IMG/VR virus record: IMGVR_UViG_3300016486_001479
Reading direction: 5' to 3' (one strand)
DNA from: an uncultured virus (IMG/VR IMGVR_UViG_3300016486_001479)
Taxonomy: Duplodnaviria; Heunggongvirae; Uroviricota; Caudoviricetes
DNA length: 36,099 bases
Positions 3,872 through 21,229 of this stretch are shown in pieces (position 1 is the first letter of the stretch; each line of letters starts with the position of its first letter). The translations under genes were made by a program, and so were the position numbers. The notes under the pieces are model-generated. The model saw only the letters and a program-made list of their open reading frames with translations, was not told the origin of the DNA and ran no database searches.

Positions 3872-4761
3872 GAAAAGCATATAGTGAAGTCACAGTGATT
3901 GGCGAAGATAGTAAAATACAAGGCTTATGCCTTGGATATGACCATTGCTCCGAACATGAATGGGGAATAAAGGGCATTCGAAGAAAACTAGAGCAAAACG
4001 ACAGGGTTTATAATAAAACCCTGGGTATTGTCACTAAAAGTGTTTTAGGGGCAGAAACCAGGATGGTTCACAACTACGAAAACATTGTGTTGGGTAAGTT
4101 TGATTATTGGCATCGAAAAGGGACTCAAATAAGTCACGAGAAAAAAAATGGATACAAAAAGAAAATTGCTTTTTTTCTCGAAACAAAAGGCATATCGATT
4201 TATGCTGATGACCAAGAAAGTGCTTTAAGGGAAGGGCGATGTAATATGCTTTCTTATTATGAACTAGAAAGAGAAGAGCCACCAGAAGGGTTTCTTTGGT
4301 CTGAGTGGGATGAAAACAATCTCAGAGCAGTGTTTACCAATGAAGATATTTTTGACGCCCTAAAGGATGTGATTAAATCAAAAAATTTACTTGTAGGATT
4401 AGGAGGTAGTTTAAACCCATTTGCAGGAGCGGGATTATATATCTTGGATTTTAGAGCTTATTCAGAAGATGATGTTAAGGAAATGGCTCAAGCAGACCTG
4501 AACCACATCAACATGTTAGAATATGCGCGACTCACAATGATTGAAAAGCGTTTGAAGAAAGCTGGTAAGAGTTGGTTTGCTTTATCTCCAAAAAAACTGA
4601 ATAAGGAGGATATGGAAAAACATAAAACCAAATTCAGCGTCATTTTTTGGCTGAATCCAACTGAACAAAGAATTGTTAATTATGGCTGGTTTACTGTTGA
4701 GGAGTTGAGGATGTGGATAAAAGGAAAAGGGCCTATAGTCAAGCAGGATGAAGTGGCATAG
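3868..4761 (+). CDS. Hypothetical phage protein (297 aa)
   Basis: Translationally coupled ORF with conserved-looking blocks DHCSEHEWG and FWLNP...YGWFT. Confidence 0.8.
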   Translation: MRKAYSEVTVIGEDSKIQGLCLGYDHCSEHEWGIKGIRRKLEQNDRVYNKTLGIVTKSVLGAETRMVHNYENIVLGKFDYWHRKGTQISHEKKNGYKKKIAFFLETKGISIYADDQESALREGRCNMLSYYELEREEPPEGFLWSEWDENNLRAVFTNEDIFDALKDVIKSKNLLVGLGGSLNPFAGAGLYILDFRAYSEDDVKEMAQADLNHINMLEYARLTMIEKRLKKAGKSWFALSPKKLNKEDMEKHKTKFSVIFWLNPTEQRIVNYGWFTVEELRMWIKGKGPIVKQDEVA

Positions 4762-5077
4762 AAAAATAGATTTAGAAACCCTAAGGAATTCAGTTTTTGT
4801 CGTGTCTATAAATATTTTGGCATATAATACATTGCTTGATAAAGGTGGAGATAATGTAGAAAATCTTATACTAAATTCTCAAAAAACTCTTTCGGAAGGG
4901 CTAGGAATTGACAGCAATGAATATCTTCCAAGTATTCGTCTCAGCTTTTTTGAAGAGGACCGAAAAAAAACTCAAATAAGTTTTGGGTTTTATAAAAAAG
5001 TTGACGGGCTTAGGAGTGTGGCGACTCATTTTATATTCAACTCAGATTATATTAAGACGTATCTTAATTTGGAATGA
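4748..5077 (+). CDS. Hypothetical protein (109 aa)
   Basis: Overlaps the previous stop and converges on the 5064 gene. Confidence 0.6.
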   Translation: MKWHRKIDLETLRNSVFVVSINILAYNTLLDKGGDNVENLILNSQKTLSEGLGIDSNEYLPSIRLSFFEEDRKKTQISFGFYKKVDGLRSVATHFIFNSDYIKTYLNLE

Positions 5078-5423
5078 TGTCTGGCGGTATTTCGATGTTG
5101 ATGTATCCTTGCTGAGGAATGGATAATCTATTTCCACCGTTGTAATAAAGCTGAAATTCTCCTCTGTATTTACCAGCTTCGTTTGTATCCACAGCCGCCC
5201 AATTGTATTGGATTGTTCCGCCTGATATAGATTGTAGCGAGCCAGCGGCTCCAGCTACTTTGTAATTCCCATGTCTATCCACCATTGAAAATGTAACAGC
5301 GGTAGCCCCAGTCATGTTGAATGGTATCCTAGTCGTGAGATTGGAGTAATCAAACACACAAATTCGCAACACTGGCAGAGTATCGTTTTGCTTGATGATG
5401 AAATCTCTTTGACTTAAAGGCAT
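5064..5423 (-). CDS. BppU-like (baseplate upper protein N-terminal) beta-sandwich virion protein
   Basis: F-x-IKQNDT-x-P, GTIQYNW...DT..AG.Y.GEF..YY..G.RLSIP pattern typical of BppU-family domains. Confidence 0.7.
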   Translation of the reverse strand: MPLSQRDFIIKQNDTLPVLRICVFDYSNLTTRIPFNMTGATAVTFSMVDRHGNYKVAGAAGSLQSISGGTIQYNWAAVDTNEAGKYRGEFQLYYNGGNRLSIPQQGYINIEIPPDIIPN

Positions 5424-5824
5424 TATGACGTTGTGAATTGGTTACTAACTACTGTAAAATCTAGTGGTTTGTTGTTAAGCATTTCTACTTCTATTTCTCG
5501 TCCCACTGTCGGAGACATCTTAAACTTGAATCGGGTATACTGTAACTTTACTGGGGAATCAGCAGTGTACTTAACTCTCCAATAAATCTCGTAATTATCA
5601 TCTGTGTTATAGAGAATCTCGTCGAGGTCTGCGAAATAGAATCCTACTTCTTGATTTGTTATTGTTGCTCCTGATTCCACAAGGGAATCACCAGTCGATG
5701 CGTTGTATACATCAGCAGTAAGAGATGCTGGGTTTATAACTGTATATGACTCGATGTTTGTACCCCCACTGTTTGAAAACGTGAGTACTCTGAATCGTCG
5801 GTATATCTTTATAACTCCAGCCAT
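5423..5824 (-). CDS. Putative virion protein, beta-rich
   Basis: 1-nt TAATG overlap with the BppU-like gene; downstream of the tube gene; S/T/G-rich with alternating hydrophobic strands. Confidence 0.65.
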   Translation of the reverse strand: MAGVIKIYRRFRVLTFSNSGGTNIESYTVINPASLTADVYNASTGDSLVESGATITNQEVGFYFADLDEILYNTDDNYEIYWRVKYTADSPVKLQYTRFKFKMSPTVGREIEVEMLNNKPLDFTVVSNQFTTS

Positions 5825-5831
5825 AATATAT

Positions 5832-5865
5832 CACACAAAAACCCTACTGTGAGGGTTTTTGTGTG
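5832..5865 (-). terminator. Hairpin/terminator after the tail tube gene
   Basis: Perfect 14-bp inverted repeat CACACAAAAACCCT-actgtg-AGGGTTTTTGTGTG. Confidence 0.7.
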
Positions 5866-5881
5866 TTTTGTTGTGAATTTC

Positions 5882-6212
5882 TTAATTACTGAGAATACAC
5901 CTGTCTGGTTGGAGGGTCAGGGTAGGCATAATCAAATCATCAGAACTATAATCGTAATCTCCAAAGCTTGCGTCTACTATTTGGCATCCGATAAGGGTCC
6001 ATTTTTGAATTTCAACTCCAGGTCCGTCTACCCCTTTCAGTACAAGGTTCTTTTTGTATCCAACTNNNNNNNNNNNNNNNNNNNNGTGAAGGCGCTTTCG
6101 TAGTTTGAACCATATACGAATCGATAGCAAGCTCCGTTGGGAACTCTAGCACAAATCGATTTTTTAATTTTGGTTCCTGCTCGATAGGAACAGGTCGAAA
6201 CATATCTGCCAT
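5882..6212 (-). CDS. Tail tube protein (T4 gp19-like), interrupted by a 20-N gap
   Basis: N part EPKLKNRFVLEFP...VQT..APS and C part YKKNLVL...GPGVEIQKWTLIG...ASFGDYDYS...TLTLQPDRCIL. The two track ORFs (6012-6212, 5882-6130) are halves of one gene. Confidence 0.88.
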
Positions 6213-6237
6213 TATTGTAGCTTTTATTGTTATTTCC

Positions 6238-6246
6238 TATAAATAG
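6238..6246 (-). promoter_or_regulatory. Putative late promoter CTATTTATA for the tail tube gene
   Basis: Recurrent TATTTAT motif 25 nt upstream of the tube ATG. Confidence 0.55.
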
Positions 6247-6408
6247 CTGGCAGAAAAAAGTTTTGTAGCGGCTTGAGATATTAGTTTACCTATTTATTAA
6301 AAAGAGTACTTAAGAGTGTGTTTATAATACATTTTTAGATTAATCTAAATAGGTATTTACCATTATCATTTTTAAGCTTATATAAGCAAGGTTTTAATAG
6401 TTACACAA

Positions 6409-7332
6409 ATGGAACGTAAAATAAAAAGAGCTCTTTGTCTTTCTGGTGGAGGTTCAAAAGGAGCTTGGGCAGGAGGTGTGATTCAATATCTTACTGAGGA
6501 CTTAAAGCTCGACTACGACCTTTACGTCGGAACATCCACTGGAAGCTTGTTAGCTCCGCTTACTTCTATTCGTGAAATAAGCACTTTAAAAGAAGGTTAC
6601 ACCAGCGTAAGCGCTGATGACATATTCTCTTATAATCCATTTAGAAAAGACGGAAGTCCCAGTTATCTTAAAATGGCTTATAGAATAGCTACTTTAAAAA
6701 CAACTTTAGGCGAGAGCGAGGGTTTATTAGAACTTATTAAAAAGTTTTTCAAAGAAAAACACTATGACAAACTCACTAGTGAGGGAAAGGAAGTAATTGC
6801 TGCAGTCGCAAATATTACTGATGAAAAAATTGAATACATGTCATCAAAAGATTGGGGATATGAAATGTTTTGCAAGTGGTTGTGGGCATCCGCCAATACC
6901 CCTCCTTTTATGACTCTTTTTGAACATCAAGGGAAGGAATATGTTGATGGTGCAATTTTGCAACACATCCCTATACAAGCTGCTATTGATGCGGGAGCCA
7001 CTGAAATAGATGTTATTGTATTACGTCCTGAAAAATTTGGTGCAACAGCTAAAAACAAGACAAAAAATGTCATTCATCTCTCAAATAAACTAATTCGAAT
7101 GATGCAACGTAAAATATCACAAACGAATGTTGAAATGGCTCAATTAGAAGCTAATAAGAGAGATGTTAAAATAAACATTATATACACGCCTTATCGACTA
7201 ACTGAAAATTCGCTCGTTTTTGACAAAGAACAAATGTTAAAATGGTGGGAAGAAGGTTATGAATTCGCAAAGGAGGGGAATATGAGACAGTATAAACTTT
7301 CTAAACGGAATGTAATACGTGAGATAGAATAA
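6409..7332 (+). CDS. Patatin-like phospholipase
   Basis: LSGGGSKG oxyanion loop, GTSTG nucleophile elbow, SANTPPF and YVDGA catalytic Asp. Confidence 0.93.
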   Translation: MERKIKRALCLSGGGSKGAWAGGVIQYLTEDLKLDYDLYVGTSTGSLLAPLTSIREISTLKEGYTSVSADDIFSYNPFRKDGSPSYLKMAYRIATLKTTLGESEGLLELIKKFFKEKHYDKLTSEGKEVIAAVANITDEKIEYMSSKDWGYEMFCKWLWASANTPPFMTLFEHQGKEYVDGAILQHIPIQAAIDAGATEIDVIVLRPEKFGATAKNKTKNVIHLSNKLIRMMQRKISQTNVEMAQLEANKRDVKINIIYTPYRLTENSLVFDKEQMLKWWEEGYEFAKEGNMRQYKLSKRNVIREIE

Positions 7333-7337
7333 CTCGC

Positions 7338-7346
7338 CTATTTATA
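7338..7346 (+). promoter_or_regulatory. Putative late promoter CTATTTATA
   Basis: 15 nt upstream of ATG 7362. Confidence 0.55.
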
Positions 7347-7361
7347 AAAAAAGCTCTTAAA

Positions 7362-7670
7362 ATGGCATATAGAACAGGAGACACTATCTATCAAAACATT
7401 GTTTCAACCGATTCCAGTAATAATGTGGAGTCTGGGGCAACTTTCGTTAACAAGCTTTATCGAAATGGCTCTTTATATGCTGGCGCCACTCTTAATTTTG
7501 CCATATCTGATGCTCCAAGAGGAGTTTATACAGCAAGTTTTTCAGCTTCAACCATTGGAGAATATCAAATATATTTTAATAACATCACAACAAACACAAT
7601 TTACATGTCTGGTATATTCAGCTTTAAATCTTCTGAAAATATATCGACAAGCATCTATATAGGTTCCTAA
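7362..7670 (+). CDS. Putative Ig-like virion protein (102 aa)
   Basis: Beta-strand pattern with GVYTASF...GEYQI; shares VESGAT with the 5423-5824 protein. Confidence 0.65.
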   Translation: MAYRTGDTIYQNIVSTDSSNNVESGATFVNKLYRNGSLYAGATLNFAISDAPRGVYTASFSASTIGEYQIYFNNITTNTIYMSGIFSFKSSENISTSIYIGS

Positions 7671-7730
7671 TAGCTGAAAGTAAGGCAAAAATGACTAATT
7701 CTAAGCTATTTAGTGTTGATACAACCCTTT

Positions 7731-9488
7731 ATGGAACAAACTAAGATATTAGACAAGGAAGCTGAATTAATGGAGTGTTCGATGGACCCTATTTACTTTA
7801 TTAACAGTTTTTGTTATGCCTATGATGTACTAAAAGACCAGCAAGCCAACATTAAGTGTTTTGATTATCAAGAGAGAGTTCTGGATTCATACATGGACCA
7901 CAAATGGAATGTGATTTTAAAGTCACGTCAAACTGGTTTATCAGTAATTACCGCATGTTATGTTGCCTGGAGAATGATATTTGGTCTGGATGAGACAATC
8001 GTAATTATCGCCAACAACCAAGACGGCGCAGTTAGATTTCTAAAACACGTCAAGAATGTTTTTATCAATCTTCCTGATTTTATTTATAGTAAAAACCGCG
8101 ATGAAGTTTCTATGGCTACGATGAAAATCGAGCACGCCAATGGGAATATTGCAATCGCTAAGGCAGCTGGTAAAAACGCAGGTCGTGGAGACGCTCCTAC
8201 TCTCTTAATATTAGATGAGTGGGCGTTTGTTAAAGACGACGATGATATCTGGACAGCCGCAGCCCCTTCTTTATCGCAAACAGAAGGAGACTGTATTGTT
8301 ATTTCAACACCAAACGGAACAGGTAATCTATATCACAAGTTCTGGGTCGACGCCGCACGCGGAGATGGTGCCTTCAACCCAATTAAGGTTCACTGGACCG
8401 AAAACCCAAAATCAGCTATTGATTTAGAGTATAGAGAAGACTCAAAAGGTATTTTAAAACCTTGGAGCCCTTGGTATGAAAAGCGATGTAAAGAAGTTCA
8501 GTATGATGGAGTTAAAATAGCACAGGAGCTTGACTTATCATTTGAAGGTTCCAAGTTGTTAGCGTTGGACCCAGATTTAATTGCCAGACAACGACAGCGA
8601 ATTGAGACTGAAAACATCAGGCCCGTCGTGTATTTTGATGTGACAGCAGAAAGTCATAATCTAGTTGGGACTGTCCAGCCTTGTCATATTTTCGAAGCAC
8701 CAAAACTACAGGCTAAATATATTGTGGCTTGCGACGTTGCTTATAGAGGAGATGATTATTCAACTATTCAAGTTTTAGATGTAGACACTCTTAATCAAGT
8801 AGCGGAATACCAGGGTAAATGTGACCCAGATGTGTTCGCTCGTTACATTGAGAAAATTGCAATGTACTACAATACGGCGTTTGTGGTTGTCGAGGCCAAC
8901 AATCACGGCCTCGTAACATGTTTTGAACTGAGAAATCAACTTAAATATCCAAGACTTTATGAATCAAAATCTATCAAAGAAATCCATGTTCGATGGATTG
9001 ATTATAAAGTAAATCCAGGCGATGGGATTCCAGGGTTTCAGACGACAGCACAATCTAGACCAGGATTAGTAAACGCTATGCGTGAAGCATTTAGAGAAAC
9101 CACAGCCACTGTGAACTCAATTCGGTTAATTGGCGAGATGGAAACGTTTGTTAGAAATCTCAAAAAGAACGGAAAAGAGGAAGCTGAGAAAGGATATCAC
9201 GATGACTTAGTTATGGCTTATGGTATTGCCCTTTATATTAGACAGACAGAGTATTATAATGTGGTTAATGCTAAGAATATGTACAAATCTATGCTTGAAG
9301 CCATGACTTTCAACGCTAGTTCTTCCGAAGGGGCAGAAGAAACTCCAGACGAGAAAACACAAAGGTTGCGGGATAAAAAAGATTTTGATGAAAATTTTAT
9401 CCCTCCAGGAGCAGGAGGATTATGGTTAGGAAGCGACGATGAAGCTGATGAAGACGACCCAAACGACCTTTCATGGCTGGTTGGGTGA
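7731..9488 (+). CDS. terL: Terminase large subunit (T4 gp17-like)
   Basis: DPIYFI, Q motif (FDYQ), Walker A KSRQTGLS, Walker B LLILDE, ISTPNG coupling motif, and nuclease motifs DVA...DYS, VEANN and GYHDDLVMA. ATG at 7731 is preferred to GTG at 7713. Confidence 0.97.
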   Translation: MEQTKILDKEAELMECSMDPIYFINSFCYAYDVLKDQQANIKCFDYQERVLDSYMDHKWNVILKSRQTGLSVITACYVAWRMIFGLDETIVIIANNQDGAVRFLKHVKNVFINLPDFIYSKNRDEVSMATMKIEHANGNIAIAKAAGKNAGRGDAPTLLILDEWAFVKDDDDIWTAAAPSLSQTEGDCIVISTPNGTGNLYHKFWVDAARGDGAFNPIKVHWTENPKSAIDLEYREDSKGILKPWSPWYEKRCKEVQYDGVKIAQELDLSFEGSKLLALDPDLIARQRQRIETENIRPVVYFDVTAESHNLVGTVQPCHIFEAPKLQAKYIVACDVAYRGDDYSTIQVLDVDTLNQVAEYQGKCDPDVFARYIEKIAMYYNTAFVVVEANNHGLVTCFELRNQLKYPRLYESKSIKEIHVRWIDYKVNPGDGIPGFQTTAQSRPGLVNAMREAFRETTATVNSIRLIGEMETFVRNLKKNGKEEAEKGYHDDLVMAYGIALYIRQTEYYNVVNAKNMYKSMLEAMTFNASSSEGAEETPDEKTQRLRDKKDFDENFIPPGAGGLWLGSDDEADEDDPNDLSWLVG

Positions 9489-9517
9489 TGCAAAGAGGCA
9501 TGAAATAAAAAATAAAA

Positions 9518-12500
9518 ATGGCACAAGAAAGCAATAATAGTATATTTCAAAGAGTCTATGACGCTGTTAACAATAACAAGCGACGCACTCCTCCTATGGA
9601 CGCACAAGGGCAACCGCCTGGAATATCCACTCCCTCGCAAGGTCTTTTTGGTTCATTAGAGGATTTTCAACAGCAGTACCTTGATTGGCAAGTAAATAAA
9701 ATCAGTCATGACCTATACACCAGAACTATTTATTATGACACAGACCGTGTCAATTCTTATCATGATTATCGTGCAATGGACCAGTCTCCAGAGGTGTCTG
9801 CCGCATTAGATATAATTCGAGACGAATGTCTCACAAGAAACGAGCGTGGAAACATTTTAGAGGTTTATAGCTCCAATGATAGAATCAAATCTAAGTTAGA
9901 TGATTTATTCCATAACAGAATGAATATCGATTACAATTTGAGTTTATGGATTAGAGACCTTATTAAGTATGGAGATTATTTCGTTCACTTACATGTCCAT
10001 AAAGACGAAGGTATTTATGACTTCATGACTCTTCCTCAAGAAGAAATTCACCGTGAAGAAGGATTCGATGGAACAGCAAGTTCTGTACGTTTCCGCTGGG
10101 AAACAACGCAAGATTACTTTGAATCGTGGCAGGTTGCCCATTTCAGGCTTATTGAGGATACTAGAAAACTTCCTTACGGACGGTGCTTGAAGCACGACAC
10201 TTATATAGAGACAAGTACAGGGTATAAGTTTATAAAAGATATAGAGAAAGGAGATTTAGTTTTTTCATTTAACTCTGACACACAAAAAAAAGAAGTCACA
10301 AAAGTCTTAGATACAATTTGTTCTGGTGAAAAAGAAATTATAAAGATTAGAACAAAGAATAATGAAATAGAAACCTCTGAGGAGCACAGTTTTATGGTGT
10401 ACGAGGATGGTGGGTTCGTATACAAACAAGTTGACGATTTAAGATTAGGAAATCTGCTTGTTATAGATTCTGGAGAAAACCCTTCAGGGGTAGATATTTT
10501 TTTAAATAAAGAACTAAAAGAAGAGAGAAACTTCAACGGATATAAAAACAACATTGATTTAATCCCTGATGTTGTTGATGTTGATTTTGCAAGGCTATGG
10601 GGTTTTTTACTAGGAGATGGATGGGTTTTTAACGATTCTGTTTTTTTTGCACGAGGTATTGACGAATCTTTAAATAAAAAATACGCTTCACTTTTGAAGA
10701 AGTTTTCAGGAAAAGACACTATAAACCTTAAAAACGCAAATTTAGAGGGTAGTTTAGAATTTTCTCAAACAGTATGTAACTCAAAGTTGCTTTCTTATAT
10801 TCTCGAAAATAACGGGTTTAAAGGAAATGTTTATATTAAAAGATTGCCTAGTTGGATTTTTGAGGCGTCATTAGAAATAAGAGAAGCTTTAATAGAAGGC
10901 ATTATAGACGCTGATGGTTCTGTAAATATTGACGAGTGGAACTGTAAAAGATACACAATAGAATTAGCAAATGAAATTTTAGTAAAAGACTTAAAAACGC
11001 TATTACAATCAATAGGTAGAAAGACTGGCAAAATCTGTTCAAGAGATAGAAGTTCTGTTGTTTTTTGGGGAAAAGAATACAAAAGAAAGAAAAGTTTCTA
11101 CTTCTACTTTTATGACTCTAAAATTAAACAAGCAGCAAAACATGAGTTATCAAATAGGATTAATAGTGGTTTCATCTTATCTCCAATCATCTCTATTGAG
11201 AACTCTGAAAAAGCAGAGCAGGTTTATGATATCCACGTAGAGCATGAACACCATAATTTCTATGCGAATGGGATAGTCGTTCACAACTCTATCTTAGACC
11301 CTGCTAGAAAACTTTGGAAGCAACTACAGCTCGCTGAGGACTCAATGTTGGTCTATAGAATCACAAGAGCTCCAGAGCGTAGAATATTCTACATTGAGGT
11401 AGGCAACTTGGAGGATGCTGATGTTAAGCAATACATGCAGCGTATCCAAAAGCAAGTTAAAAAACAGCCTATTGTGAATCAGAACGACGGCAATATGAGT
11501 TATCGTTATGACCCAATGAATATCTCGGAAGATTATTTTATTCCAGTTCGTGGTGACAAGAGCACAAAAATTGACACACTTCCTGGAGCTTGTTTGGCTC
11601 TAGATACTAAAATCAACCTTCTTGATGGTCGAAGCCTTGAGCTTCAGAAATCATTAAAGAGCGTGATGAAGGAAAACAGCTTTGGACTTACAGTATAAAT
11701 CCAGAAACTGGAGTAATAGTTCCAGGAAAAATTACATGGGCTGGAGTTACTCGTAAAGACGCTAAAGTAATGAAATTGACTTTTGACAACGGAGAGTCTG
11801 TTATTGTTACACCTGACCACAAGTTCCCTACTCGTTTTAAAGGTATACAAGAAGCACAAAATCTTGAAGAAGGAGATTCTATGTGGAGTTTTGAGAAGAG
11901 GTTTCAGAAGATTTTCAAAAACAAACCTAAAGCTAAAACATATGAACAAGTGTGGGACCACCAAAGCAAATCCTGGGAGTATACACATCGTATGGTTCAT
12001 AATTACATGTATGAGCGCAATTTGCACAAGGAACATGTTTATCAAAAAAATGTGGAAAACAAAAACGTGATTCATCATTATGATTTTGACCGATACAATA
12101 ATTCTCCAGAGAATTTAAAATTAATGAATTTCCATGACCATGTTATGCTTCATCAATCTATGTATGCTTCTTATAAAAAAGAGCGTAAAGAAGGTAGAAA
12201 TAAGTATTGGGATAATATCTCTGAGAAAGAATTAGAATCTAAAAGAGTAGTAGCACGAATCAACTTAGAAAAAGCAACAGAACGAATTCAAGAGCTACTG
12301 CAAGATGAAGATTTTAAAGCTGATTTTGAAAAGAAACGAATAGCTGGATATCGTAAAGCAAGAAAAACATCTTCTTCTCGTCTAAAATCATCTANNNNNN
12401 NNNNNNNNNNNNNNNNNNNNNNNNNNNNNNNNNNNNNNNNNNNNNNNNNNNNNNNNNNNNNNNNNNNNNNNNNNNNNNNNNNNNNNNNNNNNNNNNNNNN

Positions 12501-14319
12501 NNNNNNNNNNNNNNNNNNNNNNNNNNNNNNNNNNNNNNNNNNNNNNNNNNNNNNNNNNNNNNNNNNNNNNNNNNNNNNNNNNNNNNNNNNNNNNNNNNNN
12601 NNNNNNNNNNNNNNNNNNNNNNNNNNNNNNNNNNNNNNNNNNNNNNNNNNNNNNNNNNNNNNNNNNNNNNNNNNNNNNNNNNNNNNNNNNNNNNNNNNNN
12701 NNNNNNNNNNNNNNNNNNNNNNNNNNNNNNNNNNNNNNNNNNNNNNNNNNNNNNNNNNNNNNNNNNNNNNNNNNNNNNNNNNNNNNNNNNNNNNNNNNNN
12801 NNNNNNNNNNNNNNNNNNNNNNNNNNNNNNNNNNNNNNNNNNNNNNNNNNNNNNNNNNNNNNNNNNNNNNNNNNNNNNNNNNNNNNNNNNNNNNNNNNNN
12901 NNNNNNNNNNNNNNNNNNNNNNNNNNNNNNNNNNNNNNNNNNNNNNNNNNNNNNNNNNNNNNNNNNNNNNNNNNNNNNNNNNNNNNNNNNNNNNNNNNNN
13001 NNNNNNNNNNNNNNNNNNNNNNNNNNNNNNNNNNNNNNNNNNNNNNNNNNNNNNNNNNNNNNNNNNNNNNNNNNNNNNNNNNNNNNNNNNNNNNNNNNNN
13101 NNNNNNNNNNNNNNNNNNNNNNNNNNNNNNNNNNNNNNNNNNNNNNNNNNNNNNNNNNNNNNNNNNNNNNNNNNNNNNNNNNNNNNNNNNNNNNNNNNNN
13201 NNNNNNNNNNNNNNNNNNNNNNNNNNNNNNNNNNNNNNNNNNNNNNNNNNNNNNNNNNNNNNNNNNNNNNNNNNNNNNNNNNNNNNNNNNNNNNNNNNNN
13301 NNNNNNNNNNNNNNNNNNNNNNNNNNNNNNNNNNNNNNNNNNNNNNNNNNNNNNNNNNNNNNNNNNNNNNTCACTTAGCGTTTCTTGGGCATGAAGACGA
13401 GATTAATGATTTTGATTTAAAACTCACAAACCCTTCTACTCAACAAGAGCTGTTGAAGCTAGAGACGATGAAATCTCGACTTGAAGTATTTACATTGTTT
13501 GTGTCACAAGATATCTACTCACCTGCTTCTTACACTTGGGGTATGAAATACATTCTTGGATTTTCTGAAAAGGATATCAAGAAAATGCTTCGTCAGAAAA
13601 AAGTTGAAAGGAAACTGTTTACGGAGATTGAATTTGCTCCGCAGACATACAAAAAGATTGGATTGTTCAAAGATTTGGATGATAAATTTGAAATCCCAGG
13701 AGCAGCAGAAGCACTCCAAAACGCTGAGAACGAAGATTTAATGGGAGATGACGGCGGCGGCGGCGGCGGAGGCTTTGGCGGAGGAGGAGACTCGCTGGCT
13801 GGAGACCCATCTGGAGACCTTGATATGGGAGGTGGAGATGAAGTTGGAGGCGATGCAGGAGGAGCGCCTCCAGTAAGTGATAGCGAGCCTATATCAGAAA
13901 CTAAAAGAGAACGCATTTGGGAAGGTCACAACAAGCGTGTTGATAGTGCAATTGATGACTTGCTTAAAGAGCTTGAGGAAACCGATGAAGAAGTATTTAC
14001 GGAAGAAAGCGAGGAAGAAAAGAAAGACAGAGAAAAAAACGTTTTGTTTAAATCAAACGAAGAATTTATCAGTCAGACTGATAAAATGATTAGTGAGATA
14101 AAGGGAAATTTAAAAGAATCTGAGAAAAATATTGAAAATTACATTATACCAAAAGGAGTAATAAAAGAAAGAGTTCAAGGAAACCCTCTTGTCTCTACCA
14201 GTAATGATTTAGCAAGAAAAGCTAGAGATATAATGGATGAGATTGACCAAATAATATCTGAAACTGGGCAAAATTCTGATATGGAAATAATTGAAGAAGA
14301 CTATGACGAGGAAGAGTAA
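9518..14319 (+). CDS. Portal protein (T4 gp20-like) with two inteins; one frameshift and one gap
   Basis: PEVSAALDIIRDE, KYGDYF, AHFRL..., PYGR|SILDPARK, EDSMLVYRITRAPERRIFYIEVG, EDYFIPVRG and IDTLPGA. After the gap, HLAFLG...FDLKLTNPS is followed by an acidic tail. Confidence 0.93.
10184..11287 (+). mobile_element. Portal intein 1 (368 aa) with LAGLIDADG endonuclease
   Basis: Starts CLKHDTYI, block B TSEEH, LAGLIDADG helices WGFLLGDG and EGIIDADG, ends NFYANGIVVHN with +1 Ser. Removal restores PYGR-SIL. Confidence 0.96.
11591..12394 (+). mobile_element. Portal intein 2 with HNH endonuclease (3' end in gap)
   Basis: Starts CLALDTKINLLDG. After a -1 shift at about 11644 it reads SEIIKE...WTYSINPETG...VTPDHKF (block B), then HNH motif HRMV...VIHH.DFD..NN..ENL...H...H. 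Confidence 0.9.
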
Positions 14320-14793: not shown

Positions 14794-16983
14794 ATGTATA
14801 TAGTCTTCGATACAGAGACTACTGGCAGGCCAAAACGGTTTAACGCACCTTGGACAGATGCAGATAACTGGCCTCGACTAGTACAGTTAGCCTGGGTTGA
14901 ATATGCACAAGACGGCAGCGAAATATCCAGGCACGACCTTATAATTAAACCTGAAGGATACAACATTCCTCACGAAGTCGTTCAAATACACGGCATATCA
15001 AACGAAAAGGCGCACGCAGAAGGAATTTCTATGCTTGATGCCTTAAATCAGTTTAAAATTGCTCTAGAGCGTAACTATTACCTCATAGCACATAATATCA
15101 ATTTTGACCTTGGAATTATGGGGTGTGAATTTCATCGAGCATCGATGAGTCACAATCTAGCTTCAATATTTCCCGTTGACACGATGAAGCTTACAATTGA
15201 CTTTTGTAAATTAAGGGGTCGTCGGGGTTATAAATTTCCAAAACTTATTGAGCTCCATAATAAGCTTTTTGGGAAAGATTTTTTAGGTGCTCACAACGCA
15301 TTTTTCGATGTGCAAGCAACCGCTAAATGTTTTTTTGAACTTCAACGGCTTGGCATTTTCGGATTTAAAGAACTTCCTTCCGATTCCTCTAATGGGTTTT
15401 CTTCTGAGAGTGTTGCCCACGTATCGGTATCCCCAGAAGAGGAAGCTAAGCCGTTAGTTCATTTCTCTTGTCACACTCACTATAGCTTGCTTCGTGGCTC
15501 AGGTAGTATTGATAATTATCTTAAGCGTGCTAAAGAACTAGGGCACACATCTCTCGCTGTTATTGATGTCGAAACCATGTCAGGCAGTCTAGAGTTGTCA
15601 CAGAAAGCTGAAAAATACGGAATCAAGCCAATATTTGGAATTGAAATCTATCTCAACGATACTGTTGGCTCCGAAGAGTCAGAAAAAGGTGGATACCCAA
15701 TAAAAATCATTGTTAAAAACCAAGTGGGTTTTGTAAACCTTAATAAGCTGATATTTAAATCTCATTCAGAAGGTTTTGATGGGATGTATTCTCGTATTCA
15801 CACTGATTGGTTAATTGAGAACAAAGAAGGTTTGATTGTTACCACTGGAAACTACCAAGGATATCTCGCAAGTTTGTTTTTTAAAGGACAAAAGACGGCA
15901 GCTTCTAAATATTGGGAACGATTACAAAAAGCATTTGGCCCAGATTATATCGCAGAAATTAAGTTTTCAGAGATTGGTGAGCAAAAGCGATTTAACAACT
16001 TTGTTTTAAAAATGGCATCCGCCACGAAGGCAATGGTGATTTTAGATAATGATGTTCATTATGTTAAGCAAAAAGAAGCGTCTTTGCAAGACACTGTTTC
16101 CGCTATAAAACAACAAATAGGGATGGATAAGTGTCGTTTAGAGGAACGAAGAAATCTGTATTATTTGTCGAGAAAAGACTACTATGTTCTGAATTCAAAA
16201 TTTGGATACAATTACCCGCACAACATTCTACAGATATTCATGGATAACACTTTGAAGCTGGCTGAGCGTTGCAATTTTGAATTTGAAGTAGGGGTTGAAA
16301 AATACCCTCGTTACGAACCAACGAAAGACATTATAGATTGGGCAGGAGCAGAGGACACGGAAACCATTATCACAAAGATGGCTTTTGCGAAACTCAAGCA
16401 AAAGCTCGGACGTAAGTTTACCAAAGGAAAATTACAACAAACACAAGAGGTTGTAGATGAGTACACAAATAGACTCCATTACGAGTTAAAAGTAATTAAG
16501 GACAAGAAGATGCTTGACTACTTCCTTGTAAACTGGGAAATTATTCGAGATTATAAGAAAAGAGGTTTTGAAATTGGAAGTGGAAGAGGCTCTGCAGCTG
16601 GTTCTTTATTAGCATGGTGTCTTGACATCACTAAGATTGACCCTATTCAATTCGGGCTGTATTTTGAGCGTTTTTTGAATCCAGCACGTAATTGCGTTAC
16701 TGAAGATGGGCTGGTGTTGATGAAAGATGGCTCACTGAAACCTATCGGAGATATTGTTCCTGGGGACCCAGTTGAAACAGAATCAGGCAACGGCGTTTTG
16801 GTTCAAGTGCATAAGCGAGATATCACACCAGCTGATGAGGTGTTTGAGATTGAAACTGAAGATTCCATCATTGTAAAATTGACGGGGAATCACATTGTAC
16901 CTGTGATGCGCAAAGGAGAGCGTGTTGATATTCGCGTGGATGAGTTATTAGAGACAGATAAAATGTTAATACGAAAATTATGA
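14794..16983 (+). CDS. dnaE: DNA polymerase III alpha fragment 1: DEDDh exonuclease + PHP + start of palm + intein N-half
   Basis: FDTETTG, AHNINFD and HNAFFD (DnaQ); HTHYSLL and NDVHY (PHP); GRGSAAGSL...ITKIDP...FERFLNP; then an intein N-half. Confidence 0.95.
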   Translation: MYIVFDTETTGRPKRFNAPWTDADNWPRLVQLAWVEYAQDGSEISRHDLIIKPEGYNIPHEVVQIHGISNEKAHAEGISMLDALNQFKIALERNYYLIAHNINFDLGIMGCEFHRASMSHNLASIFPVDTMKLTIDFCKLRGRRGYKFPKLIELHNKLFGKDFLGAHNAFFDVQATAKCFFELQRLGIFGFKELPSDSSNGFSSESVAHVSVSPEEEAKPLVHFSCHTHYSLLRGSGSIDNYLKRAKELGHTSLAVIDVETMSGSLELSQKAEKYGIKPIFGIEIYLNDTVGSEESEKGGYPIKIIVKNQVGFVNLNKLIFKSHSEGFDGMYSRIHTDWLIENKEGLIVTTGNYQGYLASLFFKGQKTAASKYWERLQKAFGPDYIAEIKFSEIGEQKRFNNFVLKMASATKAMVILDNDVHYVKQKEASLQDTVSAIKQQIGMDKCRLEERRNLYYLSRKDYYVLNSKFGYNYPHNILQIFMDNTLKLAERCNFEFEVGVEKYPRYEPTKDIIDWAGAEDTETIITKMAFAKLKQKLGRKFTKGKLQQTQEVVDEYTNRLHYELKVIKDKKMLDYFLVNWEIIRDYKKRGFEIGSGRGSAAGSLLAWCLDITKIDPIQFGLYFERFLNPARNCVTEDGLVLMKDGSLKPIGDIVPGDPVETESGNGVLVQVHKRDITPADEVFEIETEDSIIVKLTGNHIVPVMRKGERVDIRVDELLETDKMLIRKL
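16693..16980 (+). mobile_element. Intein N-half 1 (96 aa), apparently split
   Basis: CVTEDGLVLM..G..KPI.DI.PGD.V, block B LTGNH, then a stop (TGA) with ATGA overlap to the next ORF. Confidence 0.85.
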
Positions 16984-17221
16984 TAGTACAAGGAAGTAGA
17001 GATATTAATTTTAAAGGTATGTGTCAAGAAGGTTCTAAACTTATAATTCCAGCTTGGCAAAAACCAACAGAATGGGATAAGCAGGTGAGAATATTCTTAG
17101 ACCACATTATAATGTCAATGTCTTCCAATAAAGGCTCTCATGATATTGGAAGAATTAACGCGAGAGATACCCACAAAATACCCTCTAATGAGAAGGGGTG
17201 GTTTGACAATATTGATGAAAG
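16980..17221 (+). CDS. Intervening ORF in the first dnaE break, DUF262 (GmrS/ParB-like)-like N-terminus; runs into gap
   Basis: LIIPAWQKPTEWDKQVRIFLDHII...HDIGRI resembles the DUF262 IP.YQR.Y.W...v..L.d.i...h.lG.i block; it is neither intein-C nor DnaE sequence. Confidence 0.45.
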
Positions 17222-17772
17222 NNNNNNNNNNNNNNNNNNNNNNNNNNNNNNNNNNNNNNNNNNNNNNNNNNNNNNNNNNNNNNNNNNNNNNNNNNNNNNN
17301 NNNNNNNNNNNNNNNNNNNNNNNNNNNNNNNNNNNNNNNNNNNNNNNNNNNNNNNNNNNNNNNNNNNNNNNNNNNNNNNNNNNNNNNNNNNNNNNNNNNN
17401 NNNNNNNNNNNNNNNNNNNNNNNNNNNNNNNNNNNNNNNNNNNNNNNNNNNNNNNNNNNNNNNNNNNNNNNNNNNNNNNNNNNNNNNNNNNNNNNNNNNN
17501 NNNNNNNNNNNNNNNNNNNNNNNNNNNNNNNNNNNNNNNNNNNNNNNNNNNNNNNNNNNNNNNNNNNNNNNNNNNNNNNNNNNNNNNNNNNNNNNNNNNN
17601 NNNNNNNNNNNNNNNNNNNNNNNNNNNNNNNNNNNNNNNNNNNNNNNNNNNNNNNNNNNNNNNNNNNNNNNNNNNNNNNNNNNNNNNNNNNNNNNNNNNN
17701 NNNNNNNNNNNNNNNNNNNNNNNNNNNNNNNNNNNNNNNNNNNNNNNNNNNNNNNNNNNNNNNNNNNNNNNN

Positions 17773-19133
17773 CTAAATGGAATGAAAGAGGATGTTTGAA
17801 GGACGTTGTTCGTGCACACCGTGGGCCAGAAGCAACAGGAACTGAATCGGATGTAGCTCAAATCACTAAAGAGATGCCGAAGTTCGACAAAGTCGAATAC
17901 AACTTGGCTTGGTGGTTAGAAAACCATGCTCAGTCAGATGATTGCAGTCCACTCGTACAAAGATGGCTTACTGATTCATCCAACAAAGTAATTATAGAAC
18001 AAACACTGGCTCTTCAGGGTCAAGTGAGAGGTTTTGGTAAACACGCCGCTGGAGTTGTTATTACTCCTGGGCCTTCTTGGGACTACCTCCCAACAAATAT
18101 GATTGTCTCTAATAAATCAATTGTATCAGCATATCAAGAGGGGGACCGCTCTGGAAAAGACTTGAGTTATCTTGGGATATTGAAGCTTGACCGTTTGAAA
18201 GTGTCAACAATTAATATCATCATGGATTGTATCAAGATGGTTAAGGATGGTGAAAAGATTGATTTGTTCGATACAATAATGAATATTGATGAGCAGTTTG
18301 ATGACCAAAACCTTTACAAGGAGTTAATGCTTGGTCAGAACCACGGTATATTCCAATTTGAATCGCCAGGCATGAACGCTTTGATTCGAGGACTCAACGT
18401 TGAGAACTTTGAAGAAATGGCTGCTTGTAATGCTCTTTATCGACCAGGCCCAATGGGAATTGGAGCCCACCGTCAATACGTTGATAACAAGAGGTTCCCA
18501 GGACAGATTGAATTTCCATCTGATTTGATAAAGCCAATATTAGAAAAAACTAACGGTGTACTGGTGTTTCAGGAGCAAATTCAATTTATCGCAAAAGAGA
18601 TAGCGGGAATGGATTTAGGAGAGGGTGATAACTTGCGTCGTGCACTTGATAAAGCTGCGAAGCTTATAAAAAAAACAAACCAAGGAGAAGAACTCACTCA
18701 GGACGAAAAGGAAAGTAAGAACTATAAAGCTTACGAAGAGTATTGGAGTAAGTTTGTATCTGGAGCAGAGGAAAATGGTGTTCCGAAAGAAGAGGTTGAT
18801 AAAATCCTTTTATACCTTTCTGATTATCTAGGGTATTCGTTTAACAAATGTTTATCTGAAAACTGTGAAGTCACAGAAAAGGAAAAGGGAAAAATATCTC
18901 TTTTAAAAACTAGGCCAGGAGATATGATTTTAGGTTATAATCCAGACACGAAAAAAAATGAATGGGTTCCAGTGAAAGCTCGTCATAACAACGGTAAAAA
19001 GAAAGTTTATCGAATTAAGACAAGTAGTGGGAAAATTTTAGAATGCACTTTGGACCATAAAATAATGACTGAACAAGGTATGTTACCTCTGAAAGATATT
19101 ATTGAACAAAAGCTTTCTGTAAAAATAAACTAG
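17773..19133 (+). CDS. dnaE: DNA polymerase III alpha fragment 2 (start in gap) + intein N-half
   Basis: LKDVVR, GKHAAGVVI, GILKLD, GIFQFES.GM, ALYRPGPM, T.GVLVFQEQ, D.LRRA and GYSFNK, then an intein N-half. Confidence 0.95.
18849..19130 (+). mobile_element. Split intein N-half 2 (94 aa)
   Basis: CLSENCEV...GD.ILGY, block B CTLDH, followed by two in-frame stops (TAG TTT TAA). Confidence 0.95.
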
Positions 19134-19166
19134 TTTTAACAAATCTCAGTCTATATACTATATATT

Positions 19167-20156
19167 ATGAAAGTAAAAATCGATTTCAAAAAGGATATAG
19201 TGAATGGCGAAGATATTGATATGAAAAAATGGAGGGCAAAGTTGTCATTAGTTTTAATTAGACAAAACAACAACTACTACAATTCTGAGATATCAAATTA
19301 TTATCACAAAAGTGTTTATGGGAAGAGTTTGGTAGATTTGCTTCCAGAATCCATTACAACTCCTTTGTGTCCGATTACAGGAGATAAGCCTAGTTACAAA
19401 CTTCAAGGCTCTATTGTTTTCGGTAAATTTTCGAATAATTGTACTACAACAGAAACTGCTAAGTACGTGGCGGAAAATAATAAAGAATATAAACTTCACG
19501 TCGAAAGAATGAAGGAAGAACGCAAAGGAAAAGGAAACCCTATGTACGGTATAAAAGCTTGGAACAAAGGAAAAACTAAAGATAATAATGAAGTCATGAA
19601 AAAGCTTTCTGAGCGCAGAAAAGGCGTTGAATTCAGCAATGAAACACTTGAGCGCATGTCAGAGAGTGCTAAAAAAAGAGAAATACATGGTCATACTGGA
19701 TTTAAACATTCAGAAGAAACTAAACAGCGCCTTAGAGATATAACGATAGCTAGATACAAAAGTGGTGTCTATTCTCATGGTCAATCAAAACCTCATCTTG
19801 AGGTAAAGAGAATGCTAAGTGAACGATTTGGAAAAGATACTTATTCTGAATCAAATCACGCTAAAGAATTCAAAGGTACATGGGAAGAAGAGTTTTCTTG
19901 TTATGGTTATTCTTTTGACTTTAGAATAGGAAGCATTTTAATAGAAGTACAGGGAGATTTTTTTCATAGTAATCAAAATACAAGACATAGCGGGTGTACT
20001 CATGATGTTCAAATAAAGAACAAGAAAAGAGATATAAAAAAAAGGCATGCAGTTGAAAGTGACGGGAGTTTTCAGCTTATAGAATTGTGGGAGAATGATA
20101 TAATTAATAACGAGTCAATTATAAAAAACAAAATAAAATGTTTGAATCTATTATAG
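19167..20156 (+). CDS. Free-standing homing endonuclease: NUMOD3-type repeats + Vsr/DUF559-like (EDxHD) nuclease
   Basis: GKGNPMYG, AWNKG and GFKHSEETKQRL DNA-binding motifs. C-terminal FDF...IEVQGDFFH...RD..K...LWENDI. Lies between split intein halves. Confidence 0.88.
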   Translation: MKVKIDFKKDIVNGEDIDMKKWRAKLSLVLIRQNNNYYNSEISNYYHKSVYGKSLVDLLPESITTPLCPITGDKPSYKLQGSIVFGKFSNNCTTTETAKYVAENNKEYKLHVERMKEERKGKGNPMYGIKAWNKGKTKDNNEVMKKLSERRKGVEFSNETLERMSESAKKREIHGHTGFKHSEETKQRLRDITIARYKSGVYSHGQSKPHLEVKRMLSERFGKDTYSESNHAKEFKGTWEEEFSCYGYSFDFRIGSILIEVQGDFFHSNQNTRHSGCTHDVQIKNKKRDIKKRHAVESDGSFQLIELWENDIINNESIIKNKIKCLNLL

Positions 20157-20248
20157 AAGTTGAAGAAATAGGAGTGGTAGATACTTACGATTTAGAAATC
20201 GATAATGAACATCACAACTTCTATGCAAATGATATCTGTGTTTCAAAT
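20138..20248 (+). mobile_element. Split intein C-half 2 (37 aa)
   Basis: MFESIIEVEEIGVVDTYDLEIDNEHHNFYANDICVSN with +1 Ser; joining restores FNK-SHS. Confidence 0.96.
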
Positions 20249-21229
20249 AGTCACTCGGTTTCATACGCATACATCGCTATGCAAACTTTATACTTAAAGC
20301 ATTACTACCCAGTATACTTTTATACAGCGCTATTGAACGAGCAAAAGTCTTCAAACGCTGGAAAGGAGAAAGAAAAACAATGGCTGACTCAGACAATCAC
20401 CGCTGCAATATCTAGAGGAATCACTATAAAACCTCCGACTAGATTCTCAATATGGAGATGGTCGATGACTGGCCCCAACGAAATCACAATGGGTTTCTCT
20501 AGCATGACTGGGATGGGAGATATTGCTTATAAAGAGTTGAAAGATAATTTAGCAATAAAAGGGAAGAAATTTAGCGAAATATCTATGGCTGCTTTTTTTG
20601 ATATACCCTTCACTAAATTCAACAAGACTTCTTTTCGTTCTTGTTTACAAGCGGGAATGTTTGATGACTGGAGCACTTCTAGAGAATATTTAATGTTTCT
20701 AAGAGATAAAAACAGGAAGAAAAAACCTAAAGACGCTTCGCAGTTTGCAATGTTCGACATGGATGATATCGAGTACACTCATAGAATAGACCATTTAAAA
20801 TACGCAGCAACTTCCGATATTGAAAAGCAAGATGAATTTATGGGAGTATGTGGTTTTGATATGGAAGAAATTAATCGAGTTTCAATTATTCACACCCGAA
20901 TGGGGGAAATGAGTGACAAGTCGAAAGAAGCTATTCTTCCACTACCACATTATGCTGAAGAAGGTTTTTACTGGTTTATTATCAATGATATCTTATTTAA
21001 GAAAACTAAAAAAGGAAAAGACTTTATCTCTATACATGGAAGCGATGGTATTGACACTGTAAAGTTCAATATATTTTCTCCAATTAGTGAAAAACTTCTT
21101 CCTCAGCTACAGAAACAAGCTGTATACGTAGGCAAATTCAAACGAAACGAAAAAGGATTTTTAAACTTTAACGGAAGAGTTAAATTAACAACAGTAATGC
21201 ATGCATATGAAGAAACATTATTGGTTTGA
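20138..21229 (+). CDS. dnaE: Intein C-half + DNA polymerase III alpha fragment 3
   Basis: After a 37-aa IntC the extein begins SHSVSYAYIAMQTLYLKHYYP..FY.ALL; HhH-like GFSSMTGMG, AGMFD, QFAMF and a C-terminal OB-fold-like region. Confidence 0.95.
   Translation: MFESIIEVEEIGVVDTYDLEIDNEHHNFYANDICVSNSHSVSYAYIAMQTLYLKHYYPVYFYTALLNEQKSSNAGKEKEKQWLTQTITAAISRGITIKPPTRFSIWRWSMTGPNEITMGFSSMTGMGDIAYKELKDNLAIKGKKFSEISMAAFFDIPFTKFNKTSFRSCLQAGMFDDWSTSREYLMFLRDKNRKKKPKDASQFAMFDMDDIEYTHRIDHLKYAATSDIEKQDEFMGVCGFDMEEINRVSIIHTRMGEMSDKSKEAILPLPHYAEEGFYWFIINDILFKKTKKGKDFISIHGSDGIDTVKFNIFSPISEKLLPQLQKQAVYVGKFKRNEKGFLNFNGRVKLTTVMHAYEETLLV

Follow-up and report, generated by a model that had tools for sequence, protein, structure and literature searches.

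Fractured genes, in which the two halves of a split intein lie on either side of a free-standing homing endonuclease gene, were described by Dassa et al. in 2009 (PMC2677866). That account reports three fractured dnaE loci with different insertion points, and its DnaE-1 locus has an extra in-frame intein C-terminal part that may be a glimpse of a multiply split gene; it also describes complementary strand charges, with both polarities occurring among natural split inteins. In the gp41-1 split intein (structure 6QAZ), the N-terminal half (IntN) has a basic strand and the C-terminal half (IntC) is negative (Beyer et al., bioRxiv 10.1101/546465). According to the same preprint, splicing of Npu DnaE with its wild-type partner survived a swap of the strand charges, a split NpuDnaB pair could be rendered orthogonal by engineered charges, and a charge-swapped Npu DnaE, which it cites, was designed for one-pot ligation of three pieces. 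Among split inteins from distant branches of the phylogeny, compared in a 24 x 24 matrix, 15 are reported to be mutually orthogonal (PMC7090010). Here we analyze DNA of 36,099 nucleotides (nt) from an uncultured virus (IMG/VR record IMGVR_UViG_3300016486_001479; Caudoviricetes), hereafter the window, in which the replicative polymerase gene dnaE is split in three by two split inteins whose charges mirror each other.

An earlier note on this DNA had read the mirror image as a selected natural orthogonality code. Relatives of both inteins point elsewhere: each polarity is probably a trait inherited within its own intein lineage, present whether or not the other intein sits in the gene, and the opposite charges in the window would then be a likely by-product of which two elements invaded, not something evolved to separate them. 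The occurrence in nature of dnaE genes in three and four pieces, with two or three split inteins having to coexist, may be new; an abstract-level literature search turned up no natural gene reported to contain two or more split inteins, which does not prove their absence.

A dnaE gene in three pieces

The region is the dnaE gene of a myovirus-like phage, encoding the alpha subunit of DNA polymerase III (Pol III alpha) with an N-terminal exonuclease. The window also codes for TerL, a T4-like portal and a tail sheath, which marks it as a tailed phage. Plus-strand open reading frames (ORFs) around a run of N at 17222-17772 encode the polymerase in pieces, and each split intein has a free-standing endonuclease ORF (at site 1, a probable one) after its IntN. 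The features are as follows, with net charges for the intein halves and for the strand by which each would pair with its partner (aa, amino acids; a slash within a motif marks a splice junction here and below):

14794..16692, + strand: extein part of dnaE piece 1, comprising an RNase_T-type exonuclease, a PHP domain and the beginning of the Pol III alpha core; C-terminal end ...FERFLNPARN
16693..16983, + strand: IntN-1; 96 aa plus stop (16693-16980 in the charge count), Cys1, block B TGNHIV, net -8, pairing strand -6
16980..17221, + strand: start of an ORF after IntN-1; its ATG overlaps the IntN-1 stop; 80 aa readable
17222..17772, no strand: run of N, one of six in the window
17775..18848, + strand: visible extein part of dnaE piece 2, with the remaining Pol III alpha core and the finger domain; C-terminal end ...GYSFNK
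18849..19133, + strand: IntN-2; 94 aa plus stop (18849-19130 in the charge count), Cys1, block B TLDHKI, net +7, pairing strand +5
19167..20156, + strand: site-2 free-standing endonuclease ORF; 329 aa, beginning 33 nt past the IntN-2 stop, its end overlapping the start of piece 3 by 19 nt
20138..20248, + strand: IntC-2; 37 aa, C-terminal end ...CVSN followed by Ser+1, net -10, pairing strand -4
20249..21229, + strand: dnaE piece 3, extein part; starts SHSVSYAY..., so that excision restores GYSFNK/SHS

With both inteins removed, the pieces are colinear with the contiguous 1364-aa DnaE of an intein-free relative (L010), with junctions at about residues 641/642 and 1037/1038 by blastp. Piece 1 aligns over residues 1-651, piece 2 with reference residues 680-1040 and piece 3 with 1036-1361. 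The window has FLNPARN at the site-1 junction, where L010 reads FMNPTRQ/SMPDIDVDV; at site 2, piece 2 stops at reference residue 1037 and the extein of piece 3 begins at 1038. Pfam matches agree with this layout: RNase_T (8.5e-13), PHP (2.8e-30) and DNA_pol3_alpha (6.8e-30, profile positions 15-99) in piece 1, and DNA_pol3_finger (3.7e-40) and DNA_pol3_alpha (profile positions 138-259) in piece 2. Piece 3 has 66 database homologues, many of them with Pfam PF14579.

Both elements are predicted to be class 1 split inteins of the HINT fold that would splice in trans. Piece 1 with its tail spans 14794-16983, and the 96-aa C-terminal, Hint-like tail begins with Cys; this nucleophile, Cys1, follows the N-extein directly in both inteins (FLNPARN/CVTEDG in IntN-1, GYSFNK/CLSENC in IntN-2), and both block B motifs have the form T-x-x-H. 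The ORF of piece 3 (20138-21229) opens with the 37 aa whose terminal Asn directly precedes Ser+1 (...CVSN/SHS). In Pfam the half domains scored below the curated cut-offs (Hint 21.6 bits for IntN-1; Intein_splicing 19.9 bits). The best sequence matches of IntN-2 in the Protein Data Bank (PDB) are chains of the Npu DnaE split intein (E 1.4e-7 to 8e-7). IntN-1 matches PDB sequences weakly (a TFIIB intein at 6.6e-4, a hedgehog Hint domain at 3e-3), and IntC-2 matches the C-terminal parts of inteins (9hth at 1.8e-4, DnaB, DnaX, and gp41-1 at 0.01). IntN-1 and IntN-2 are 22% identical, and we therefore treat the two inteins as unrelated.

The run of N between the visible parts of the gene is expected to contain the remainder of the site-1 endonuclease ORF as well as IntC-1 and some 38 residues of extein, among them the catalytic PD(I/L)DIDF motif, the last because piece 1 stops at about residue 641 and visible piece 2 resumes at reference residue 680. 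The lengths of N runs in the window are unreliable, and ORF lengths and frames across them are meaningless: between the same 100% identical flanks, a run of 551 N in the window corresponds to 1410 nt in near-identical public contigs, and one of 976 N to 637 nt. A 717-aa "ORF" at 16980-19133 is an artefact of translating through N, and the idea of a truncated site-1 endonuclease was dropped, as N-run lengths are not true lengths.

Charges of the intein halves

The net charges listed above (K/R minus D/E, His left out) come from 20 D/E and 12 K/R in the 96 aa of IntN-1, 12 D/E and 19 K/R in the 94 aa of IntN-2, and 10 D/E and no K/R in the 37 aa of IntC-2, exactly as the earlier note had counted by hand. 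Compared with same-length stretches of 22 long ORF products from the window, the charge of IntN-1 is ordinary (16% are as acidic), that of IntN-2 lies in the top 4.8% and that of IntC-2 in the top 1.9%. Taken singly, a net charge is thus weak evidence, and its meaning rests on conservation and position. As to position, the charges cluster on the two strands whose pairing is seen in solved split inteins (IntN-1, -6; IntN-2, +5; IntC-2, -4). When IntN-2 is aligned to Npu DnaE, the window has GKKKVYRIKTSS opposite the Npu strand GEQEVFEYCLED, with Lys/Arg where Npu has Glu. The claim that pair 2 inverts the polarity of the cyanobacterial DnaE inteins is borne out by this strand and by the net charges of +7 and -10, and intein 2 looks to be a naturally occurring relative of the cyanobacterial type in which the charges are reversed, its polarity being the one described for gp41-1.

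In the mechanism that we propose, two independent mobile elements, each made up of a split intein and an endonuclease ORF, would have cut dnaE into three co-oriented pieces from which three polypeptides would be made separately. IntN-1 would pair with IntC-1 and IntN-2 with IntC-2, aided by oppositely charged beta-strands: acidic IntN and basic IntC strand in intein 1, the reverse in intein 2. Two trans-splicing reactions would then rebuild FLNPxRx/SxPD(I/L)DIDF and GYSFNK/SHS. The earlier note went further and held that like charges would repel in the wrong pairings. Its charge logic stands, with IntN-1 (-6) meeting IntC-2 (-4), and IntN-2 (+5) meeting an IntC-1 strand that is +2 to +5 in relatives; the orthogonality itself is a prediction, and repulsion in these pairings is a plausible but unproven mechanism for it. 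Given the 22% identity of the two IntN halves, orthogonality is expected mainly from overall divergence, to which like-charge repulsion would add as a possible bonus. That the mirror-image strand charges measurably help to keep the pairs of the window apart is possible but seems doubtful to us; if they did, strand-swap mutants would gain cross-splicing, exon skipping or cyclization of the middle piece.

Polarity in relatives of the two inteins

A homologue search with piece 1 returned 15 loci, six of them 100% identical over piece 1 and nine diverged, and further searches added more; with piece 3, a single-sequence search returned near-identical contigs only, and diverged loci required an alignment-based search. 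We classed relatives by tblastn against the L010 reference dnaE and by reading ORF ends. The survey leaves out L036-L095, which have only intein head matches of about 38 aa and probably represent other host genes, and L110-L175 (identity of at most 34%). The charge comparison rests on diverged relatives, and the six near-identical contigs were left out at the masked stretch. The intein states found were:

No intein in dnaE (L010, L014 and nine more loci): L010, L014, L100-L104, L106-L109
Split at site 1 only: L009/L013 (L006 partial), L098/L183, L180/L192, L181/L187, L186
Split at site 2 only: L008/L025, L028, L029, L030; more distant, L031/L032, L033, L034
Contiguous mini-intein at site 2 only: L024
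Site 1 split and site 2 contiguous: L026; L012, which also has a contiguous intein at a third site, x (GxARG/C...HN/SGGGS)
Split at sites 1 and 2, like the window: L023
Split at x, 1 and 2, in four pieces: L027
Split at x and 1, where the locus ends: L011, with at least two split inteins

The pair L009/L013 and L010 have exteins that are 94-99% identical, and intein 1 is present in the former pair only, a typical homing polymorphism.

In the close clade of intein 2, IntN is net positive in 7/7 and IntC net negative in 7/7, with strands of +1 to +7 in IntN-2 and -2 to -6 in IntC-2 (no strand value was obtained for L023, where motif anchoring missed, and a mis-anchored 7-aa IntC value for L029 was ignored). 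The same basic-N/acidic-C polarity appears in genes split once (IntN/IntC net +14/-10 in L008, +8/-9 in L030, +8/-6 in L028 and +6/-5 in L029) and in those split two or three times (intein 2 at +7/-10 in the window, +11/-11 in L023 and +2/-10 in L027). Nor is the polarity confined to split inteins. In the contiguous mini-inteins at site 2, which we cut by length and not by structure (first 94 and last 39 aa), the last 39 aa have net charges of -10 (L012), -8 (L024) and -8 (L026), and the N/C strands have +4/-4, +5/-5 and 0/-2, respectively. The closest relative of the window's intein 2 in this set is in fact the contiguous intein of L012 (60% identity in the N part, 81% in the C part). Because contiguous relatives already carry it, the polarity predates splitting. 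Among the 66 database homologues of piece 3, six are without an IntC head and two are truncated; in the 58 that are readable, whose gene context is not known, the head has a net charge of -5 or lower in 48, -1 to -3 in eight and 0 in two, and is positive in none. An equally acidic IntC in singly split or contiguous relatives was what the earlier note itself had named as refuting a selected code, and with four of the former and three of the latter showing it, that claim is not supported.

More distant site-2 inteins depart from this pattern, with IntN/IntC net charges of -7/+2 in L033 (strands -4/+5), +4/+1 in L034 (strands -2/+5) and -9/-2 in L031. Since L033 and L034 differ from the window clade, polarity has flipped within the family, deep in its history. 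Strand polarity would thus be a lineage trait that can flip within a family.

Intein 1 has the opposite polarity and likewise keeps it. IntN-1 of the window is 43-64% identical to IntN-1 of seven relatives; its net charge is negative in 8/8, and the strand in relatives is -3 to -7 in all six measured (L009 escaped the motif pattern and gave no value). The window's own IntC-1 lies within the run of N. In nine distinct diverged relatives, all of which have the terminal HN/S, IntC-1 has net charges of +3, -2, +6, +3, +4, +4, +2, -1 and +2 (positive in 7/9), its first 20 residues have +3 to +6 in 9/9, and its pairing strand (the 12 residues before a V-Y-D-L motif) has +2 to +5 in 9/9. The basic IntC-1 that had been predicted is therefore found in relatives, in its strand throughout and in its net charge mostly. 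In near-identical public contigs, a product homologous to the IntC-1 plus extein of the relatives is encoded, with 61% identity over residues 1-200 of that of L009 and with the HN/S-x-PD(I/L)DIDF junction. The window phage's own IntC-1 very probably has a basic strand, and its net charge is likely to be positive as well. Five of the nine relatives with a basic IntC-1 strand are without any site-2 intein; the polarity of intein 1 appears to be inherited, having been kept in these five lineages as well.

The surveyed loci also bear on how inteins become split. Contiguous site-2 inteins (L012, L024, L026) and split ones (the window, L008, L023) form a natural series for this process. At site 2 of L031 (7662-9983), and also of L032, IntN continues in frame into an endonuclease domain of HNH type (274 aa following Cys1) and IntC is on a separate ORF, so that the intein is split after its endonuclease domain.

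Same-polarity split inteins side by side

In L027, three split inteins, at sites x, 1 and 2, break dnaE (4157-11041) into four pieces. Both L027 (6694-7188) and L011 (11146-11652) encode a polypeptide of 164-169 aa that consists of IntC-x, 34 extein residues (SGGGSLL...FLNPxRN) and IntN-1. The two inteins that meet in this polypeptide are both acidic-N/basic-C (Nx -18 and -19, Cx +3, N1 -10 and -14), with strands of -7 and -8 versus +5 and +6, and they are more alike than the two inteins of the window (IntN 32%, IntC 44% identity). If polarity were a code, the middle piece should cyclize and the outer pieces should skip it; yet two diverged phages keep this arrangement with splicing residues intact. 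Natural co-resident split inteins thus do not appear to need opposite polarity.

The polypeptide between sites x and 1 is a very small natural middle fragment for tandem trans-splicing. The gaps between the pieces of the L027 gene are about 430-700 nt long and contain no ORF of at least 100 aa except one of 147 aa; the endonuclease genes there seem to have been lost or to have decayed.

Alternative explanations

Taken as a whole, a reassembled dnaE whose inteins carry lineage-inherited polarities is the probable reading of this locus, with trans-splicing, orthogonality and the charge of the window's IntC-1 as its predicted parts. Several points weigh against it. All three loci split at both sites 1 and 2 (the window, L023 and L027) combine opposite polarities; this is uninformative because polarities are fixed per family, and it does not contradict selection either. 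Because inteins move, host genes that now have one split may have had two in the past. In the contiguous relatives the N parts carry less positive charge (-1, +6 and +1) than in the split ones (+2 to +14), which makes charge tuning after splitting plausible, with the length-based cut of the contiguous inteins underlying these values. Splicing, cross-splicing and the charge of the window's own IntC-1 are predicted, and the four-piece gene of L027 is taken to be functional from its intact motifs.

The alternative that survives best keeps the lineage-fixed polarities and adds a sorting step: a second split intein would settle more easily in an already split gene if its polarity is opposite, enriching such combinations. 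The 3/3 opposite combinations at sites 1 and 2 fit this, as does the absence of intein 1 from the loci whose distant site-2 intein has a classical or neutral pattern (L031, L033, L034). Those inteins, however, occur in dnaE genes with only about 25% identity to the reference, among which no intein 1 was seen, so the comparison is confounded by phylogeny; the combinations of sites x and 1 share one polarity in 2/2 cases (L011, L027), and the numbers are far too small for a test. We consider such sorting unlikely.

Less probable again, and in our judgment quite improbable, is that the inversion of pair 2 evolved or was kept because the gene is doubly split, blocking the skipping or cyclization of the middle piece. 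The charge logic is self-consistent on the strands, the three loci split at both sites 1 and 2 agree with it, and swapping the charge of whole fragments has been used to suppress cross-reactivity, as cited in 10.1101/546465. Against this, the polarity is the same in the four singly split and three contiguous relatives and in 48/58 database homologues, the nearest relative of intein 2 is contiguous, split inteins of one polarity adjoin in L027 and L011, and a strand swap gave no orthogonality in Npu DnaE, as that preprint reports it (10.1101/546465).

That the pieces are decaying remnants of a polymerase that is not reassembled, with charges of no functional meaning, is very improbable: expression and splicing are predictions here and the site-1 endonuclease ORF runs into the run of N, but all readable splicing residues are intact, conservation extends to the extein motifs, several public viral contigs match pieces 1 and 3 at 100% identity, and the same architecture recurs in diverged phages (L023, L027).

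Endonuclease ORFs

From end to end, the site-2 endonuclease ORF shares 44% identity with the ORF that occupies the equivalent position in singly split L008, and it matches the PHROG family "HNH endonuclease" (1.7e-7). A NUMOD3 match is weak and below the Pfam cut-off. In the Vsr-like homing endonucleases of fractured genes (PMC2677866), Vsr-type nuclease motifs would lie at the C-terminus; the C-terminal 129 aa here gave no match in Pfam, and the ORF gave none in a PDB sequence search. It also matches the site-1 endonucleases of relatives weakly (E 0.001), and those score DUF559 and MTES_1575 below cut-off.

The start of the ORF at 16980..17221 overlaps the stop of IntN-1, leaving no spacer at site 1. 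This ORF is probably the N-terminus of the site-1 free-standing endonuclease; it has a short match (9/21 identical, E 1e-4) to the ORF after IntN-1 in L011, and its 80 readable aa gave no match in Pfam or PHROG. L009 (10181-12040) and L013 have an extra ORF of 620 aa between IntN-1 and the site-1 endonuclease ORF.

Inteins in the portal gene

The T4-like portal gene of the window (9518-14319, + strand) holds two more inteins. One is contiguous with a LAGLIDADG domain, occupies approximately residues 223-590 of a 726-aa ORF and ends HNFYANGIVVHN/S. The other starts CLALDTKINLLDG about 35 aa before the stop at 11698 and continues in another frame, in an ORF from 11770 (block B TPDHKF, HNH domain) that is followed by a run of N. 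Either a frameshift or an atypical split that leaves a very short IntN could account for this.

Implications

One-pot ligation of three or more protein fragments is limited by the orthogonal split inteins available. A phage polymerase rebuilt from three or four pieces would be a natural proof of non-interfering inteins, and because the polymerase must be rebuilt in this way, these pairs are good candidates for the toolbox. If strand charges did help to keep its pairs apart, the window would offer protein engineers an evolution-tested, ready-made orthogonal pair, and L027 a natural four-fragment ligation set. With the adaptive story unsupported, the charge observation itself is less surprising.

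Comparison with described systems

The closest described systems are the fractured genes of Dassa et al. (PMC2677866). Site 2 of the window has the same order and strand of its three coding regions (IntN half, endonuclease ORF and IntC half, all on one strand), its 33-nt spacer falls within the 27-51 nt range given there, and dnaE is among the fractured host genes, as in the window. The hairpin described for the 5' untranslated region was not found before the site-2 endonuclease ORF, where the predicted structure is no stronger than in shuffled sequences (z 0.14). The loci as described in that account are fractured in two, whereas the window gene is in three pieces and that of L027 in four.

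Like gp41-1, intein 2 of the window combines a basic IntN strand with an acidic IntC, and IntC-2 aligns to the C-terminal part of gp41-1 (E 0.01). Unlike in the window, the gp41-1 host gene is a helicase, and similarity is low (IntN-2 against 6qaz, E 0.31). The engineered charge-swapped Npu DnaE, as it is cited in the preprint, shares the idea that reversed fragment charges lower cross-reaction between tandem split inteins; it is a designed variant of one intein, whereas the window has two unrelated natural inteins whose polarities would have been inherited separately.

The cyanobacterial split DnaE inteins (Npu/Ssp) interrupt the same host protein and include the best solved-structure match of IntN-2 (E 1.4e-7, residues 1-90). 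Their insertion point we take to be a few residues off site 2 of the window, with Cys at the +1 position where the window has Ser, and the penultimate residue of IntC is presumably His in Npu as against Ser in the window (...VSN). Their polarity is reversed in intein 2 of the window, and their halves are encoded at distant loci, whereas those of the window are adjacent with an endonuclease ORF between them.

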